Shown here one piece after another: positions 3,523 to 22,619 of a stretch of 64,000 nt of DNA (positions are counted from its first letter, which is position 1; every line of letters begins with the position of its first letter). This DNA is from Escherichia phage ECD7: sequence record NC_041936.1; one strand, 5' to 3'. Made by a program: the position numbers and the translations under genes. Under the pieces are notes generated by a model. The model did not search any database. It was not told the origin of the DNA and worked only from the letters and a program-made list of their open reading frames with translations.

Positions 3523-5322
3523 ATGCTAATGTTTAATAACTCCGTTAAATGGTTTACCGGAATTGTAGAAAACAGGGAAGACCCATTAATGCTGGGGCGT
3601 GTTCAGGTTAGGATTCATGGTATACATCCCTCGCTATCCGCACACGGTGACATTCAAGGTCTTCCAACCGAAGATCTATTATGGATTACGCCAGTACAAG
3701 ATATTACAAGCGCGGCGATCTCCGGTATAGGTCAAAGCCCTACTGGTATTGTTGAAGGTTCAATGGTATTTGGTTTGGCTTTAGATGAACGCTATTTAAA
3801 CTGCGTTATTCTGGGTACTATTGCCGGACAATATACAGAGAAACCACTCACTACAGAGGGTTTTTGCGACCCTTCTGGTGCATATCCTCGTTATATTGGT
3901 AATGATGTTAATATTCTTGCTCGTGGCGGTATTAACCCAGAAACCGGACAAACAACAAAACCTGATAGTGTCTATATTCGAGATGAAAACACTGGAGTTG
4001 CAGTAAATCCAGACGACGAGCCATTAGACCAAATTCCGGTTGATGATAATCCTGATTTTACAATCGAAAAAATGCTGCGGGGCGATGAGGGATATCGCGA
4101 GAAATGGTATCTTGATTCAGAAGGATATCCGACAATAGGCATCGGGCATTTGATCATTTATAAGAAAACCAGTGATCTGGGTATTATCAATAATGAACTT
4201 TCTAAGCTGGTAGGGCGTGAAGTTACAAACGGAAGACTTACCGCCGAAGAAGTTAGTAAAGTATTTGCCGACGATATAGAAAAGACTCGTCGTGATATGC
4301 GCAAGCATCCACGAATTGCACCTGTCTATAATAAATGTAATGCCTCACGTCGTATGGCATTAGAAAATATGGCGTTTCAAATGGGTGTTGGTGGATTGGG
4401 TAAATTTAAGAATAGTCTTGCTGCGATGTTAGCGGAAGAATGGAAACAAGCCTATGATGGATTACGTCAATCTGTATGGGCTAACCAAACTCCAGGACGA
4501 TCCAGCCGTGTTTCTAAAATTATTCTGACTGGTAACTTAGAATCATATGGCGTAATTGCTCCAAAGAAAGAGGAATCAATTTCGGATGACCCGCGAGCAC
4601 GTTTGAGAAATGCCCGTATTGCTGCCTATAAGACGCAGAGAGCAGAAGAAGACCCAGAAGCACCGTTTACCCCACAAGACACACGAATCATGTTTAAAGA
4701 GCCTAAGAGTTCGTATTCTGCGAGGTATCCTTATAACCATGTTTACGAGTCAGAGAGCGGTCATATTATCGAGATTGATGATACTCCTTCTCATGAGCGT
4801 TATCACCGCAAACATCCTTCTGGTACATTTGAAGAAACCAGACCGGACGGAACGAGGGTAGAAAAGATTGAAGGCGATGATTATCTGATCGTTAAACAAG
4901 GCCGGAAAGTAAACGTTAAGGGTAATTTGCAAGTTGTTGTTGAAGGTGACGCGCAAGTTTATTATATGGGTAATGTGATGCAAACCGTTGATGGTAACGT
5001 CACGGAATTTATTCGTGGCAATGTTAATCAGACCGTTGAAGGCACTGCTAACATGCATGTTGTAGGTGATGTTACCGCTCAGCTTGACGCTAATTTGACG
5101 GCTAATGTCAAGGGTAATGCTGAATTAATGATCGAGGGTAACACTACAGAGACAATTAAAGGTAACTATGATTTAACCGTTGAGGGTAATTTTAATATGA
5201 CCGTCAATGGCACTAAATCAGATCAGGTTAATGGTGATTGGTCCCGTAATTGTGGTGCAAGCGTTAAAGATATTGCATCTGGTACAGTTAAAATTGATGG
5301 TAGCCGTATTGATCTTGGGTGA
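3523..5322 (+). CDS. 5: baseplate hub/central spike protein gp5 with lysozyme domain
   Basis: 599 aa; N-terminal OB-like region, T4-lysozyme-like segment (DEGYREKWYLDSEGYPTIGIGH), C-terminal VxGxxxxxx beta-helix repeats. Confidence 0.9.
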   Translation: MLMFNNSVKWFTGIVENREDPLMLGRVQVRIHGIHPSLSAHGDIQGLPTEDLLWITPVQDITSAAISGIGQSPTGIVEGSMVFGLALDERYLNCVILGTIAGQYTEKPLTTEGFCDPSGAYPRYIGNDVNILARGGINPETGQTTKPDSVYIRDENTGVAVNPDDEPLDQIPVDDNPDFTIEKMLRGDEGYREKWYLDSEGYPTIGIGHLIIYKKTSDLGIINNELSKLVGREVTNGRLTAEEVSKVFADDIEKTRRDMRKHPRIAPVYNKCNASRRMALENMAFQMGVGGLGKFKNSLAAMLAEEWKQAYDGLRQSVWANQTPGRSSRVSKIILTGNLESYGVIAPKKEESISDDPRARLRNARIAAYKTQRAEEDPEAPFTPQDTRIMFKEPKSSYSARYPYNHVYESESGHIIEIDDTPSHERYHRKHPSGTFEETRPDGTRVEKIEGDDYLIVKQGRKVNVKGNLQVVVEGDAQVYYMGNVMQTVDGNVTEFIRGNVNQTVEGTANMHVVGDVTAQLDANLTANVKGNAELMIEGNTTETIKGNYDLTVEGNFNMTVNGTKSDQVNGDWSRNCGASVKDIASGTVKIDGSRIDLG

Positions 5323-17074: not shown

Positions 17075-18475
17075 ATGGCAAACAATACTATTAACCACGT
17101 AAAAGACGATGCTCAATACGTCAAGTTTAACCCTGTAAATGATTGGCCTCAAAACATTACCAACGTACAAGCGGCTTTAGCCGCTATTAACGGCTTTGCT
17201 GTAAATGGATTGCCGGACGCTACGGAAGATACAGCCGGGATCGCTGCAATCGCAACTCAGGAAGAAGTAAACGACGGTACTGTAGATAATAAGATCGTGA
17301 CTCCAAAAACACTGGCTGTTAAAATGTCACGTCCAGATGCTACAAAAGAAGTAAAGGGTATCACCCGATTTGCCACGATGGAAGAATCGCTGCAAGAGAG
17401 CAACGAGAACATGGCAATCGGTCCAGACACACTAAACCATTACTTCACCACTAAAAAGGCGTCAGAGAGCGTTCAGGGGACTATTAAGATATGTTCTCTT
17501 GAGGCAGCAAAGATTGGCAGTGATGACACAATGGCAGTAACACCGAAAAAGATGCACACTGCCATTGCACAGATTGTGCCGGGATTAATTCCAGATCAAA
17601 ACACAGCAACCGAAAGCGCACAGGGTTTAGTTCAGTTAGCAACTAATGCGCAGGTTTTACAAGGCCAGATTCGAGAAGGTTTTGCAATTAGCCCTTATGC
17701 ATTTGCAAATGCTCGCGCCAATGAGAATCAGGCGGGTACTGTTAAGATCGCCAGCCAGTCACAGATGAATGCTGGTTCAGATGATACTGTAGTTGTTTCT
17801 GCTAAGAAGTTTGCAAGCACTAAGGCAACAACGTCTCAATACGGCATTGTTAAACTACGAGACACCGTAGGAAGTGAGGCTAACGCTGCACTATCAGCAA
17901 ATGCTAAGGTTCTTCCTAGCACTGGCGGTACGGTAAGCGGAAACGTCTATAAAGGTTCAAACTCAGACGGCAACCAGTTTGTTACTAAAAATGAATTAGC
18001 GAATCACGCAATGCCAATTGGTGGTATTATCCTTTCTGGATTCAATGCCGATCGAGGTGACTTTCTGATCTGTAATGGTCGTTCACTGAATAAAAATCAA
18101 TATCCGCAATTATTTTCTGCGATTGGTTATACCTTTGGTGGTTCAGGTGACAATTTTAATATTCCTGATATGCGCGGTTTAGTTGCTCGTGGTTGCGATC
18201 ATGGAAGAAACCTTGATCCAGGTCGTCGATTTGGTTCTTATCAAGAAGATGCAATGCAGAGAATTACTGGTAAATTCCCTGTAGCTGACCGCTGGCGCGG
18301 TTGGTATGGTGGCGCATTTACTGCACAGCGCGGTCAATGGAGCACGAACTATAAAAACGGTGGTGGTGATGATTGGGGTTCTACTGTTAACTTTGATTCA
18401 GGAAGATCCGTAAGAACGGCTAACGAGACTCGCGTCAAGAGTCTGGCATTAAACTATATCATAAGGGTGCGCTAA
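17075..18475 (+). CDS. 12: short tail fiber protein gp12
   Basis: 466 aa, repetitive Gly/Ala/Thr-rich fibre with C-terminal globular region; synteny. Confidence 0.8.
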   Translation: MANNTINHVKDDAQYVKFNPVNDWPQNITNVQAALAAINGFAVNGLPDATEDTAGIAAIATQEEVNDGTVDNKIVTPKTLAVKMSRPDATKEVKGITRFATMEESLQESNENMAIGPDTLNHYFTTKKASESVQGTIKICSLEAAKIGSDDTMAVTPKKMHTAIAQIVPGLIPDQNTATESAQGLVQLATNAQVLQGQIREGFAISPYAFANARANENQAGTVKIASQSQMNAGSDDTVVVSAKKFASTKATTSQYGIVKLRDTVGSEANAALSANAKVLPSTGGTVSGNVYKGSNSDGNQFVTKNELANHAMPIGGIILSGFNADRGDFLICNGRSLNKNQYPQLFSAIGYTFGGSGDNFNIPDMRGLVARGCDHGRNLDPGRRFGSYQEDAMQRITGKFPVADRWRGWYGGAFTAQRGQWSTNYKNGGGDDWGSTVNFDSGRSVRTANETRVKSLALNYIIRVR

Positions 18476-20244
18476 TGATTGAACAATTAAACATCCACGA
18501 GATCCCACATGTTGACGGTGTACCAAGCGAAGGACAGCACCGTATTAACTGGATCAAGAATGGCGAATGTTTAAGCGCAGCAACGACACAGACGGGCAAT
18601 GACGGGACGCTTAACCGCGCCCCGGTTGCAATTCAAGAAAACGTTGCACGCGTAAACGAAAACGCAAAATCAACCGTCGCTAAAGTTAACGAGGTTGTAA
18701 CGGCGGTTAACGATATTAAAACAACTTTAGGGGTAATTTCTGACGGAAGTATCATTGATGTGGTTAACCAGACTGTCGCAAAAGTTGAATCCGTCGAAGA
18801 GAACTTAGGAGAAACAGCAAGAACTCTGCAAACAACGGTAGACGCTGTATCAGAACTTAACATCAAGATTGGTGATCGCCCCGCTGCCGATCCGAGCACA
18901 AGAACAATCTATGATGACATTTCTTTCATCAAACAAGAAATGGGTTCTTATCCTAACTTTAATATCAATGGTTCCCCTGATGCTGGCAGTTCCGGTTCTG
19001 GCATCAAATACCGAGTTATTCAGAATACCGCAGCATTAAATGACCACGGTCGCCGAATCATTCAGCTTGAAAACGACTGGCAAGATTCTGACGTAGGCGA
19101 GTTAACAAGACAAGTTAACAAAATGCGCAGTGAGATCGGCGACACGTCTCTTGCAACACAAGAAAATGTGTATGTTCGTCTCCGCACCAACGCAAGAAAC
19201 ATTGCTAACTTATCAAACGAAGTTCTAGAAGTCAAGAAAGCAATTTTGTTTGATTCAATCCCTGATATCGGGACTAAAGTCACTACGCTGGGAACTAATT
19301 ATGAACGTCTAAACAATGATGTTAATGGTGTAGATTCCGGTATTCGTCCTCGTCTTCTGGCTGTCGAGAATAAGATCGGAACGCCTCAATCGGCTGGAAG
19401 CATTGACTATCGATTAACCAACACAGAGCGAGAATTTTTAGATCTTAAACAGGTTGTTGGTGTAAGCGGTGCTGACGGTTTGCGCGGTGAAGTTGTTCGA
19501 CTTTCCAATGAGATTGGCACTGACAGCGATCGACATACTCTAGCCGGACGTATTAAAGTTGTAGAAAACACTCAGGGTCGGTTAGAAGCAAGCGTACAGG
19601 ACATGGAACAGATTGTAGGTGATCGCGAATCAGGTTTGACCGCTGGCGTTATTAAACTATCAAGTGATATCTATGGCGATGATGGTTCAGAAGATCCATT
19701 TACTCAGAAAGGCGTGATTAAAATCGTCAAAGAGCTACAAACATCTAACGGAAACAAAGTAGATGATGTACCTGATGACGGTTTCCATTATCTGCGTAAG
19801 CGCGGAGAATGGGTGCAAGTTGCATATGCTGCTGGAGCATTTAAAAATACCGCAGATATTACGGTTGAACTTGACGAACAGGATGTTTATAAACCGATTC
19901 CGCTAAACGATATGACCGAAGAAGTTCCTGCGCGTGGAATGGTTAAGAGCGAATCTCTTGTTACGGTTAACGACAAAGGATTATTCCGTTGTGATTTCCG
20001 TTGTTCTGTAAATGCGGCACATAACGCTACTTTCGTAGTCGGTATTGCTAAAAATGGTCTGATTGTACATGAGGTACGAAATGGTCATTATGGAGCTGAT
20101 GATTTAATTAGCTATTCTACCAGTGCTTTCCTAAATATTGAAAAGGGCGACCGGATCGATATTCGCATTAAGGGCGTATCCGAAGAAGCATTAGCGCAAC
20201 AGCTACAAATTAAAGAGTTCCTCTTTGGGATTTCTCCGGTATAA
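18475..20244 (+). CDS. wac: fibritin (neck whiskers) with foldon-like segment and extra C-terminal C1q-like domain
   Basis: N-terminus IPHVDGVPSEGQHRINWIKNGE, long coiled coil, foldon-like DDGFHYLRKRGEWVQV at aa ~431-450, then ~139 extra residues. Confidence 0.85.
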   Translation: MIEQLNIHEIPHVDGVPSEGQHRINWIKNGECLSAATTQTGNDGTLNRAPVAIQENVARVNENAKSTVAKVNEVVTAVNDIKTTLGVISDGSIIDVVNQTVAKVESVEENLGETARTLQTTVDAVSELNIKIGDRPAADPSTRTIYDDISFIKQEMGSYPNFNINGSPDAGSSGSGIKYRVIQNTAALNDHGRRIIQLENDWQDSDVGELTRQVNKMRSEIGDTSLATQENVYVRLRTNARNIANLSNEVLEVKKAILFDSIPDIGTKVTTLGTNYERLNNDVNGVDSGIRPRLLAVENKIGTPQSAGSIDYRLTNTEREFLDLKQVVGVSGADGLRGEVVRLSNEIGTDSDRHTLAGRIKVVENTQGRLEASVQDMEQIVGDRESGLTAGVIKLSSDIYGDDGSEDPFTQKGVIKIVKELQTSNGNKVDDVPDDGFHYLRKRGEWVQVAYAAGAFKNTADITVELDEQDVYKPIPLNDMTEEVPARGMVKSESLVTVNDKGLFRCDFRCSVNAAHNATFVVGIAKNGLIVHEVRNGHYGADDLISYSTSAFLNIEKGDRIDIRIKGVSEEALAQQLQIKEFLFGISPV

Positions 20245-20253
20245 GAAATTAAA

Positions 20254-20273
20254 GGGGCGTTAAGCCCCTTTTT
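20254..20273 (+). terminator. rho-independent terminator after wac
   Basis: ggggc-gttaa-gcccc hairpin followed by TTTTT. Confidence 0.6.
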
Positions 20274-20290
20274 CGTTTATAGGTGATATT

Positions 20291-21223
20291 ATGTCAGGAT
20301 ATGTAACAAATAACCCAAGAGAATTAAAAGACGCTATTCTGCGTCGTTTAGGCGCACCAGTAATTAACGTAGAAGTAACAGAAGACCAGATTTACGATTG
20401 TATTCAGAGAGCATTAGAACTCTATGGGGAATATCATTTCGATGGTGTGAATAAAGGATATAAAGTATTTCGTGTTAGTGCAGAGCAAGCTCAACACGGG
20501 GTATTTGATTTGAGCGATTCTGGAGTATTCGCAGTAACTAAAATAATTCGAACAAACGTAGGTAGCGCGGCTACGATGGATGGCACTGCCGTTTATCCGT
20601 GGTTTACTGACTTTCTGTTGGGTTTAGCTGGTGTAAATGGCGGTTTAGGATCTGGCTGTAGTAAATTTTATGGTCCAAATGCAATGGGCGGTGATCTAGG
20701 ATATTTCGAACAGCTTATGAGCTATCGAGCCACTATGCAAAATATGCTCAATCCGCTTCCAGACTATTGGTATAATAGCGCAAACGGACAACTTAAGATA
20801 ACAGGAAACTTCCGAGAAGGTGATCTCATTGTTGTTGAATTATATGTTAAAAGCTATGTAGACGTTCCTGATATGATCGGCGCGGTTGCTGGTTATGCTC
20901 ATGCTGGAGGATGTTCTACCGCTGGCGGGATTAGCGCCGTTTATGATAATCCAACTGCTGGTTTAAGCGGGATTGTTGCTGGCATGGGACCGATCAGTGA
21001 GAACAAGCAGGGCGCATATAATAACCGTTGGGTTAAAGACATGGCAACCGCTTTCACTAAGGAGGTGTGGGGGTCCATCATGGCTAAACATCAAGGTCTG
21101 CAATTACCCGGCGGTGTCACTGTTGATGGTATCCGAATCATTGAAGAAGCACGCGCCGACATTGAGAAATTGCGACAAGAACTAGAATTATTAGATCCTC
21201 CGTTCGGCATCCTCATGATTTGA
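20291..21223 (+). CDS. 13: neck protein gp13
   Basis: 310 aa, synteny. Confidence 0.85.
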
Positions 21224-21232
21224 TTAAATGTG

Positions 21233-21262
21233 TTGACTAATATGTTCTCGTTAGTGTATGAT
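21233..21262 (+). promoter_or_regulatory. sigma70-like promoter (TTGACT, 18-nt spacer, TATGAT) upstream of homing endonuclease gene
   Basis: -35 21233..21238, -10 21257..21262; overlaps a 9-bp inverted repeat 21242..21250 / 21267..21275. Confidence 0.45.
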
Positions 21263-21289
21263 CTGACGAGAACATAAAAGGAGAATCAT

Positions 21290-21874
21290 ATGGCATATTA
21301 TTATCTATATCAAATAACAAATAATTTAAATGGGATGGTCTATGTTGGTATGAGAACGTCCAAAAAACCAATAGAAAAGGATTCTTATTGGGGGAGCGGA
21401 AAACGAATTAAAAGAGCAATAAAAAAGTATGGAATAGAGAACTTCACAAAAACTATTCTTTCCACACACAACACGTTAGAAGAACTAGCTTTAGCAGAAA
21501 AAAAGATAGTGACTAAGGAATTTGTAGAAAGAGAAGATACATATAATATTGCTCTGGGTGGAGTGAATAGAGGTTCTTTGTGGGATGACATGGACGAAGA
21601 AACAAAAAATGAAGCAAGAAGAAAAATATCTGAAAAAGCATCCAGTCGAAAAAGAGAATCTCACTCAGACGAGACTAAAAATAAAATGAGTCAATCGGCA
21701 AAAAATAGAAAGAGAGATTGGGAAAATTTTAAAGGCGCAAGAAAAATTATGGCAGAAGGTGTTCTATACCTAACCACTCAAGAATGTTGTAGAAAGTATG
21801 GGATATCAGCCGCTTCTATGAGGAAACGAGTAAAGTCAACCGCAGAAAAATGGAAGGAGTTTTATTATGTTTGA
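21290..21874 (+). CDS. GIY-YIG homing endonuclease (Seg-like)
   Basis: N-terminal [17 protein letters not shown] (GIY...YIG), NUMOD3-like [12 protein letters not shown], basic C-terminus; inserted between genes 13 and 14; AT-rich. Confidence 0.8.
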
Positions 21875-22619
21875 CTCTACATTATTTGCCAGATTGGAGT
21901 CACAGAAGGATTATGAGAACACTAGACAAACAGAAATTCTCAATCCTTATGTGAATTTCAATTCACATACAAATACACAAACTCTAGCCGATATTATGGT
22001 TGCCGAGTCTATACAAATGCGCGGCGTCGAGATGTACTACATACCGAGAGAATTTGTTAAACCTGATATGATATTTGGGGAGGACGTACAAAGCAAATTC
22101 ACTAAGGCGTGGAAGTTTGCAGCGTACATAAATTCTTTCGATGGGTATGAGGGTGCTGGCAATTTCTTTCAATCTTTCGGTTATACCGCTAATGATGAAT
22201 TAACCATAACCATAAATCCAAATTTATTCAAACATCAAGTAGACAACCAAGAGCCTAAATCCGGCGATTTGTTTTACATTCCTATGAGCAACGATTTATT
22301 CGAAATCTCATACGTCGAGCCATATCAGCCGTTTTTTCAGGCTGGCAAAAATGCCATGCGTAAAATTATTGCAGAGAAATTCGTGTATAGCGGCGAGGAA
22401 TTGCGACCAGAATTACAACGCAATGATGGAATTAATGTTGATGAGTTTGCGGATCTGGATCTTGCACCGATCACTAATCTGGACGGGTTAACAGATATCA
22501 ACTTAGATCAGTACAAAGAAGATAAGCAATTCAGAAGCGAAGGACAAGATTTTATTGATCCGTTTGATCCTATTAATGCAAGGGTTCACCTTTCGCCGAT
22601 TTTTGATAAATACTCATAA
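21867..22619 (+). CDS. 14: neck protein gp14
   Basis: 250 aa, synteny. Confidence 0.85.

Follow-up and report, generated by a model that had tools for sequence, protein, structure and literature searches.

Fibritin, the neck whisker and collar protein encoded by wac, ends in phage T4 at the foldon, as a preliminary description of the present locus had said; the 487-residue T4 protein stops 7 residues past the motif, while in Escherichia phage ECD7 the chain runs well beyond it. What is this extension, which fold does it adopt, and what might it do at the tip of a whisker? The window referred to throughout is the whole stretch of DNA analysed, 64,000 nucleotides of the ECD7 record NC_041936.1, which is Krischvirus DNA (RB49-like, T4-type phage). 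The gene, its parts and its neighbours lie in it as follows.

17075..18475, + strand: gp12 short tail fibre gene, upstream neighbour, with a Collar domain
18475..20244, + strand: wac (fibritin; neck whiskers, collar), a 1770-nt ORF of 589 aa plus stop
18475..18654, + strand: wac N-terminal domain, approximately aa 1-60, by alignment to the N-terminus of T4 fibritin
18655..19752, + strand: segmented coiled-coil shaft, about aa 61-426, from the T4 fibritin alignment of aa 7-431
19753..19827, + strand: foldon-like motif NKVDDVPDDGFHYLRKRGEWVQVAY, aa 427-451
19828..19899, + strand: junction and first extension strands, aa 452-475, a conserved AAG followed by predicted strands A and A'; RB49 allele type
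19900..20241, + strand: predicted C1q/TNF-like jelly-roll core, aa 476-589; JSE allele type
20251..20271, + strand: GC-rich hairpin resembling a terminator, with a T run after it, located 7 nt past the wac stop
20291..21223, + strand: gp13 neck protein gene, downstream neighbour

The protein is a fibritin (Wac) by the homology of its N-terminal domain and shaft, by a foldon that scores above the Pfam cut-off and by its position between gp12 and gp13, a gene order also found in RB49, JSE, PS2, Muldoon and 92A1. The T4 fibritin chains 3j2o and 2bsg match aa 7-431 (phmmer, E 9e-50), the mini-fibritin chains 1ox3 and 2ibl align with aa 7-84 at an E-value near 2e-15, and the match to PHROG 1056 ("fibritin neck whisker") runs from end to end (E 5.9e-186). 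At the nucleotide level, wac is 99.7% identical to its counterpart in JEP8 and 95.5% identical to that of RB49, and the ORF is covered fully by all 56 of 56 matching records. In T4, the N-terminal region of fibritin docks on the neck protein gp13 (PMC12929629). At the 5' end of the gene, the stop of gp12 overlaps the start of wac in the pentanucleotide TAATG (18473-18477), an arrangement that suggests translational coupling of the two genes.

The foldon could be delimited closely. Pfam Fibritin_C (PF07921) matches aa 368-451 with 105.3 bits against a cut-off of 21, and since the match, which begins at profile position 2, reaches position 92 of 93, the foldon is complete, its end falling at about aa 451. 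The core P-D-D-G-F-H-Y-L-R-K-R-G-E-W-V is aligned to P-R-D-G-Q-A-Y-V-R-K-D-G-E-W-V of T4; among PDB chains, the profile built from the fibritin family described below picks out the T4 foldon; none of the 11 family members departs from the foldon residues P, Y, R, W and Q; and an AlphaFold2 (AF2) model has a beta-hairpin at model residues 17-31, corresponding to aa 437-451. ECD7 and T4 (1rfo, 1aa0, 2bsg) thus share a hairpin of the form P-x-D-G-x-x-Y-[VL]-R-K-x-G-E-W-V where their homologous coiled coils end. The T4 foldon, however, is C-terminal and sufficient for trimerisation (PMC3797505), whereas that of ECD7 is internal, lacks the T4 "STFL" tail and is followed by AAG and a 138-aa domain; the RB49-type foldon is moreover reported to be insufficient alone (PMC3797505). 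Residue 452 begins at nt 19828, and from there the chain continues to aa 589 (nt 19828..20241), so that the layout first proposed, a foldon-like segment followed by about 139 residues, is borne out at 138. The peptides quoted in support of that layout are likewise all found where they had been placed, DDGFHYLRKRGEWVQV at aa 434-449, LFRCDFRCSVN at aa 503-513, FVVGIAKNGLIVHEV at aa 520-534 and STSAFLNIEKGDRIDIRI at aa 548-565.

A C-terminal extension of the RB49 type was reportedly described by Letarov et al. in 2005 (J Bacteriol 187:1055). The novelty that the preliminary description implied does not hold: the extension is a published and named variant, the RB49-type being one of eight fibritin C-terminal forms (Letarov & Krisch 2013, PMC3797505), and the identical protein is present in GenBank. 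Membership of this type follows from a post-foldon domain of about 140 aa that is homologous to RB49's. Alignment with a different known fibritin C-terminal variant had been named beforehand as an outcome that would tell against the proposal, and a published RB49-type C-terminus is what the alignment shows. Among fibritins, the small foldon suffices for trimerisation in T4 and JS98 only, and that of RB49 needs sequences of its expanded C-terminal domain in order to fold and trimerise (PMC3797505), the one published statement on the function of that domain; the C-terminal moiety of Wac in RB49-like phages has been described as unrelated to T4 Wac (PMC9569957). The fold goes without a name in PMC3797505, where the term "C1q" occurs 0 times, and the literature searched, a scope outside which Letarov et al. 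2005 fell, yielded no link between a fibritin C-terminal domain and a C1q/TNF-like fold. What is added here is solely a name for the predicted fold of a domain of roughly 115-138 residues, together with a testable folding-nucleus model.

The extension, hereafter the head (aa 452-589, with its core at aa 476-589), is a real conserved domain. Chance read-through is excluded because the 589-aa ORF is intact in 56 Krischvirus genomes and because the head core shows purifying selection, with a dN/dS of 0.09-0.17 when the deep lineages of RB49 and JSE are compared, a value similar to that for the shaft. In ten Krischvirus genomes, the wac ORFs are intact, equal in length and aligned without gaps. 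By tblastn, the 138-residue head is 100% identical in five GenBank phages and 82% identical at the amino acid level to that of RB49, the latter figure reflecting recombination, not fast evolution. Hypervariability of the head within Krischvirus was considered and ruled out, pairwise identity and the density of variable sites being like those in the rest of Wac.

Distant heads were found in Serratia phages 92A1, WSPA, 4S, PS2, Muldoon and SP1, in Cronobacter phage VP8 and in a metagenomic fibritin (P0005), where they occupy the equivalent place in their fibritins; the most distant pairs within the family share 25-31% identity (tblastn). The comparison of wac C-termini across related phages that had been called for thus found the extension conserved at the ends of fibritins, the foldon and head module being kept in 11 of 11 divergent members whose proteins are all 589-595 aa long. 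In the 11-sequence alignment, the foldon plus head is 19-34% identical to the window sequence, the AAG junction is invariant or nearly so, and the head retains D-x-G, NG and an L-N-I...D motif. Between genera, identity to the window Wac falls from 36-52% for the foldon through 28-42% for the shaft to 12-29% for the head core, the most diverged part of the protein. Judged from this alignment, the length and architecture of the whisker seem tightly constrained, because the total stays at 589-595 aa despite such low shaft and head-core identities.

The domain was seen solely at fibritin C-termini, in Krischvirus, Muldoonvirus and a few Serratia and Cronobacter phages. For relatives outside fibritins, a word-indexed search of 5.8 billion proteins gave just two 110-aa fragments (P0001 and P0002), HMMER against 1.84 billion representative proteins gave two fibritins and one repeat protein and no other head relative, and a search of IMG/VR gave two Krischvirus-like contigs and nothing else. 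The repeat protein (P0004), with its six weak stretches, was judged likely to be spurious. Both fragments begin at Met480 (P0001 on a contig of 927 bp), which suggested stand-alone head proteins arising from an internal start or a separate gene. For P0002 this was rejected, since it is an assembly artefact: in the metagenomic Krischvirus contig L019 (ENA scaffold TONG22-1 scaffold_107), wac is split at 3829-3928 by a stretch of N next to which the sequence is duplicated, leaving an ORF of the head core only.

Which fold the head adopts was approached by curated domain models, by profile-profile comparison and by structure prediction. Pfam C1q (PF00386) does not match the window Wac and occurs below threshold in 3 of the 11 family members (E 0.013-0.025). 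Pfam BclA_C (PF18573) reaches 17.8 bits on the window Wac against a cut-off of 38 (E 3e-3) and is sub-threshold in 5 of the 11 (best E 5.7e-4). Searches of the PDB with the family, by sequence and by profile, found the foldon alone and no match to the head. The hhalign comparison set a profile of the head against a gC1q profile assembled from adiponectin/CTRP homologues (seed 100% identical to PDB 4dou), both profiles being shallow (Neff about 3). It returned a probability of 92.2% (P 5.9e-7) over 70 columns with the strands in correct order, against 0.8% for the reversed profile and maxima of 2.5% in 30 column shuffles and 16.4% in 30 block shuffles. The alignment pairs the motifs of strands C, D-E, F and G (DKGLFRC / IPGLYYF; V.I.KNG; LNIEKGDRIDIRI / LHLEVGDQVWLQV). 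Remote homology to the C1q/TNF superfamily was thus detected at the level of shallow profiles.

Structure prediction points the same way. From a shallow alignment of 5 sequences, AF2 modelled aa 421-589 as all-beta with a mean pLDDT of 68 (75-87 in the head blocks); a model of the head alone reached a mean pLDDT of 74.9 and a pTM of 0.71, with a core at 80-90 and an unreliable segment, below 50, at aa 478-493. The predicted structure is a 10-strand jelly-roll beta-sandwich that superposes on gC1q/TNF domains. Foldseek matched the head-only model to C1q/TNF-superfamily structures at TM 0.55-0.65, ExsFA and BxpB being the top PDB matches, and the first model had 359 viral matches in BFVD, many of them phage C1q-domain, collagen-repeat and tail-fibre proteins. 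Receptor-binding fibre tips are among the closest structural neighbours of the predicted head.

Taken as a predicted fold, a C1q/TNF-like jelly roll at aa 452-589 is well supported, because the sub-threshold Pfam matches, hhalign, Foldseek and BFVD agree, and the head is a probable remote homologue of the C1q/TNF superfamily. Of what the preliminary description had proposed on this point, the jelly roll emerged from the suggested AlphaFold model and its comparison with gC1q domains, and the likeness to C1q is supported by hhalign and Foldseek, but the domain stays below the curated Pfam thresholds. It is very unlikely that the head is instead a generic beta-sandwich unrelated by descent to C1q/TNF, its likeness being convergent or an artefact of a model of moderate confidence. 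Such an account would fit the lack of significant Pfam and PDB sequence matches, the HMMER result of fibritins plus one likely spurious protein, and the shallow AF2 input; against it stand a profile-profile match that owes nothing to any model and far exceeds its shuffled controls, Pfam matches to BclA_C and C1q that recur below threshold in several members, and the agreement of two structure-comparison methods on two models in pointing to one superfamily.

The gC1q/NC1 domains (adiponectin, C1q A/B/C, C1QL, cerebellin, collagen VIII and X NC1; PF00386) share 12-19% sequence identity with the ECD7 head, which lies below the Pfam gathering score, would be trimeric by analogy and is carried on an alpha-helical coiled coil, not on collagen. 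The Bacillus exosporium proteins BclA, ExsFA/BxpB and F-BclA provide the best sub-threshold Pfam match and the top Foldseek PDB matches, and BclA too is a distal knob on a surface filament, but the ECD7 head falls far short of the BclA_C cut-off, has no collagen-like region and belongs to a phage virion, not a spore. TNF-like distal knobs are also known from phage fibres, among them cyanophage A-1(L) gp33 CBD (8KE9), the A4 tail fibre (9K09), the Sf6/HS1 needle knob, PRD1 P5, the head of the phage 1358 RBP and the central spike knob of phi812. These are placed on host-facing tail fibres, needles or spikes, whereas that of ECD7 would sit on neck whiskers and collar fibres, structures that to our knowledge are not known to touch the host.

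How, then, might such a domain serve a whisker? In collagen stalks, trimerisation and chain registration are the task of gC1q/NC1 domains. By analogy with every characterised member of the fold, three heads would be expected to form a trimeric knob at the free end of each whisker or collar fibre, a three-fold arrangement also suggested by the stalk, itself a fibritin trimer, and by how the fold family behaves. In the model we favour, RB49-type fibritin keeps the T4-like neck-docking N-terminus, the segmented coiled coil and the foldon hairpin, and ends in a compact all-beta domain, predicted to be a C1q/TNF jelly roll, that would act as a C-terminal nucleation and registration unit. By gathering the three chains, the knob would fix the register in which the coiled coil then zips from the C- to the N-terminus; on the simplest reading, it would take on in RB49-type fibritin a task that the T4 foldon performs unaided. 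We hold with moderate confidence that the protein is an RB49-type fibritin with a C1q/TNF-like trimeric knob whose primary role is folding and registration. The folding-nucleus role rests on one summary sentence in a review-type article (PMC3797505), and a pure folding role leaves the greater divergence of the head core than of the shaft between genera unexplained. The C1q/TNF-like label would offer a structural rationale for the published trimerisation need and allow the "alien" RB49-type C-terminal moiety to be annotated as a C1q/TNF-like knob, and a natural tandem of foldon and C1q may interest users of the foldon as a trimerisation tag.

A different role would be played if the knob gave the phage's own long tail fibres (LTFs) a place to dock, holding them retracted or helping their attachment and setting the environmental response of retraction. 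T4 fibritin does assist LTF attachment and hold the LTFs "up" in an environment-dependent manner (PMC3797505). The T4 whisker, however, contacts the LTF kneecap (gp35) not by its tip but by shaft helix alpha11 (fibritin 361-386; bioRxiv 10.64898/2026.03.06.709160), about 100 residues before the C-terminus. This, and the recombination described below, make a docking role quite unlikely in our judgement. Because the T4 contact runs through alpha11, the tip is free, and a domain added there need not disturb the contact and could carry another function. The favoured folding knob may also offer a binding surface at the tip of the whisker.

The history of the gene brings in one further feature.

19899..19902, + strand: recombination breakpoint inside wac, codon 475/476, from RB49-/JSE-distinguishing sites

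ECD7 wac is an intragenic recombinant with an RB49-type shaft and a JSE-type head core. The sites that distinguish RB49 from JSE are all RB49-type up to nt 1425 of the gene and all JSE-type from nt 1428, the 5' part being 99% RB49-type and the 3' part 99% JSE-type, and the breakpoint coincides with the start of the jelly-roll core. The ECD7 and RB49 proteins are accordingly of one type, with the same length of 589 aa and the same gene context, but differ in the head core (aa 476-589), where ECD7 carries the JSE allele (99% aa identity to JSE, 78% to RB49). Sequence identities of 98.5-99.7% in wac and 96-100% in the head indicate that the mosaic is common to seven GenBank phages (JEP8, E26, PHB13, 011D4, ELT3, ELT4 and Makalu_002). 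Between-type swapping of fibritins has been described as ancient (Letarov & Krisch, PMC3797505); the mosaic shows that head alleles are under ongoing exchange within one fibritin type. With 95-100% identity across all Krischviruses, gp13 could be the other recombination anchor.

The surroundings differ sharply in conservation. Between the RB49 and JSE lineages, a block from 17328 to 20244 is hyperdivergent, nucleotide identity being 69% in the 3' part of gp12 and 75% in wac, and from 20291 to 22619 the adjacent gp13 and gp14 are 95% and 93% identical. Krischvirus seems to carry two deep allelic lineages of its short-tail-fibre and whisker genes. The LTF knee (gp35-gp36) is 88-100% conserved in the genus; that of the window clade is 97.8-98.4% identical to RB49 at the nucleotide level and 94.6% to JSE. 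Since a JSE-type head stands beside an RB49-type gp35-gp36, the head was swapped without a matching swap of the knee, and co-variation of head allele and LTF knee was rejected, a test that is weak where the knee is so conserved throughout the genus. With the same reservation, the lack of a joint swap speaks against the docking of LTFs on the knob.

Alternatively, the knob might be an adhesin or lectin for a host glycan (O antigen, LPS, capsule) or an environmental ligand, the whiskers then serving as extra low-affinity receptor-binding or sensing fibres. The preliminary description had proposed a role of this kind, in adsorption or environmental sensing, and had left a folding role out of consideration; the evidence on adhesion or sensing is indirect. 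In favour of it, the head core diverges fastest of all parts of Wac between genera with different hosts, recombination exchanges its alleles within the genus, wac shares the hyperdivergent block with the receptor-binding gp12, the fibre tips named above are among its structural neighbours, and a role in host recognition has been considered for the Aeh1 fibritin type (PMC3797505). Within Krischvirus, on the other hand, the head is under purifying selection and no more variable than the rest of Wac, TNF-like knobs on phage fibres are not always determinants of specificity, and T4 whiskers have no known host-contact role (PMC3741392). We therefore regard an adhesin as unlikely. The sharper claim, that the knob is a ligand-binding head (for instance a lectin for enterobacterial glycans or a solute sensor) and that the swapping of its alleles reflects selection on binding specificity, we consider quite improbable. 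Were it true, the neck of RB49-type phages would be surrounded by as many as twelve additional trimeric knobs for binding, which could aid reversible adsorption or let a cue from the environment govern the deployment of the LTFs. The folding knob that we prefer leaves the understanding of T4-type phages unchanged unless a ligand for it is found.

One more feature lies downstream of the mosaic gene.

21290..21874, + strand: ORF of a free-standing homing endonuclease of the GIY-YIG type; match to Pfam SegE_GIY-YIG with 29.5 bits (cut-off 25)

This ORF is inserted between gp13 and gp14, and its equivalent in Phi1 is annotated as SegC. Phages kvi, Phi1 and phiS share the insert at 99% identity; RB49 and JEP8/E26 lack it at this site. 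Co-conversion of the head patch by the endonuclease is unsupported, because its presence does not track the head allele: kvi and Phi1, with an RB49-type head, and phiS, with a JSE-type head, all carry the insert, and the mosaic JEP8/E26 clade is without it. Between wac and gp13, the hairpin at 20251-20271 has an 8-bp stem with 5 GC pairs and forms on both strands, and the records of Makalu_003 and G2248 annotate a terminator at the equivalent spot.
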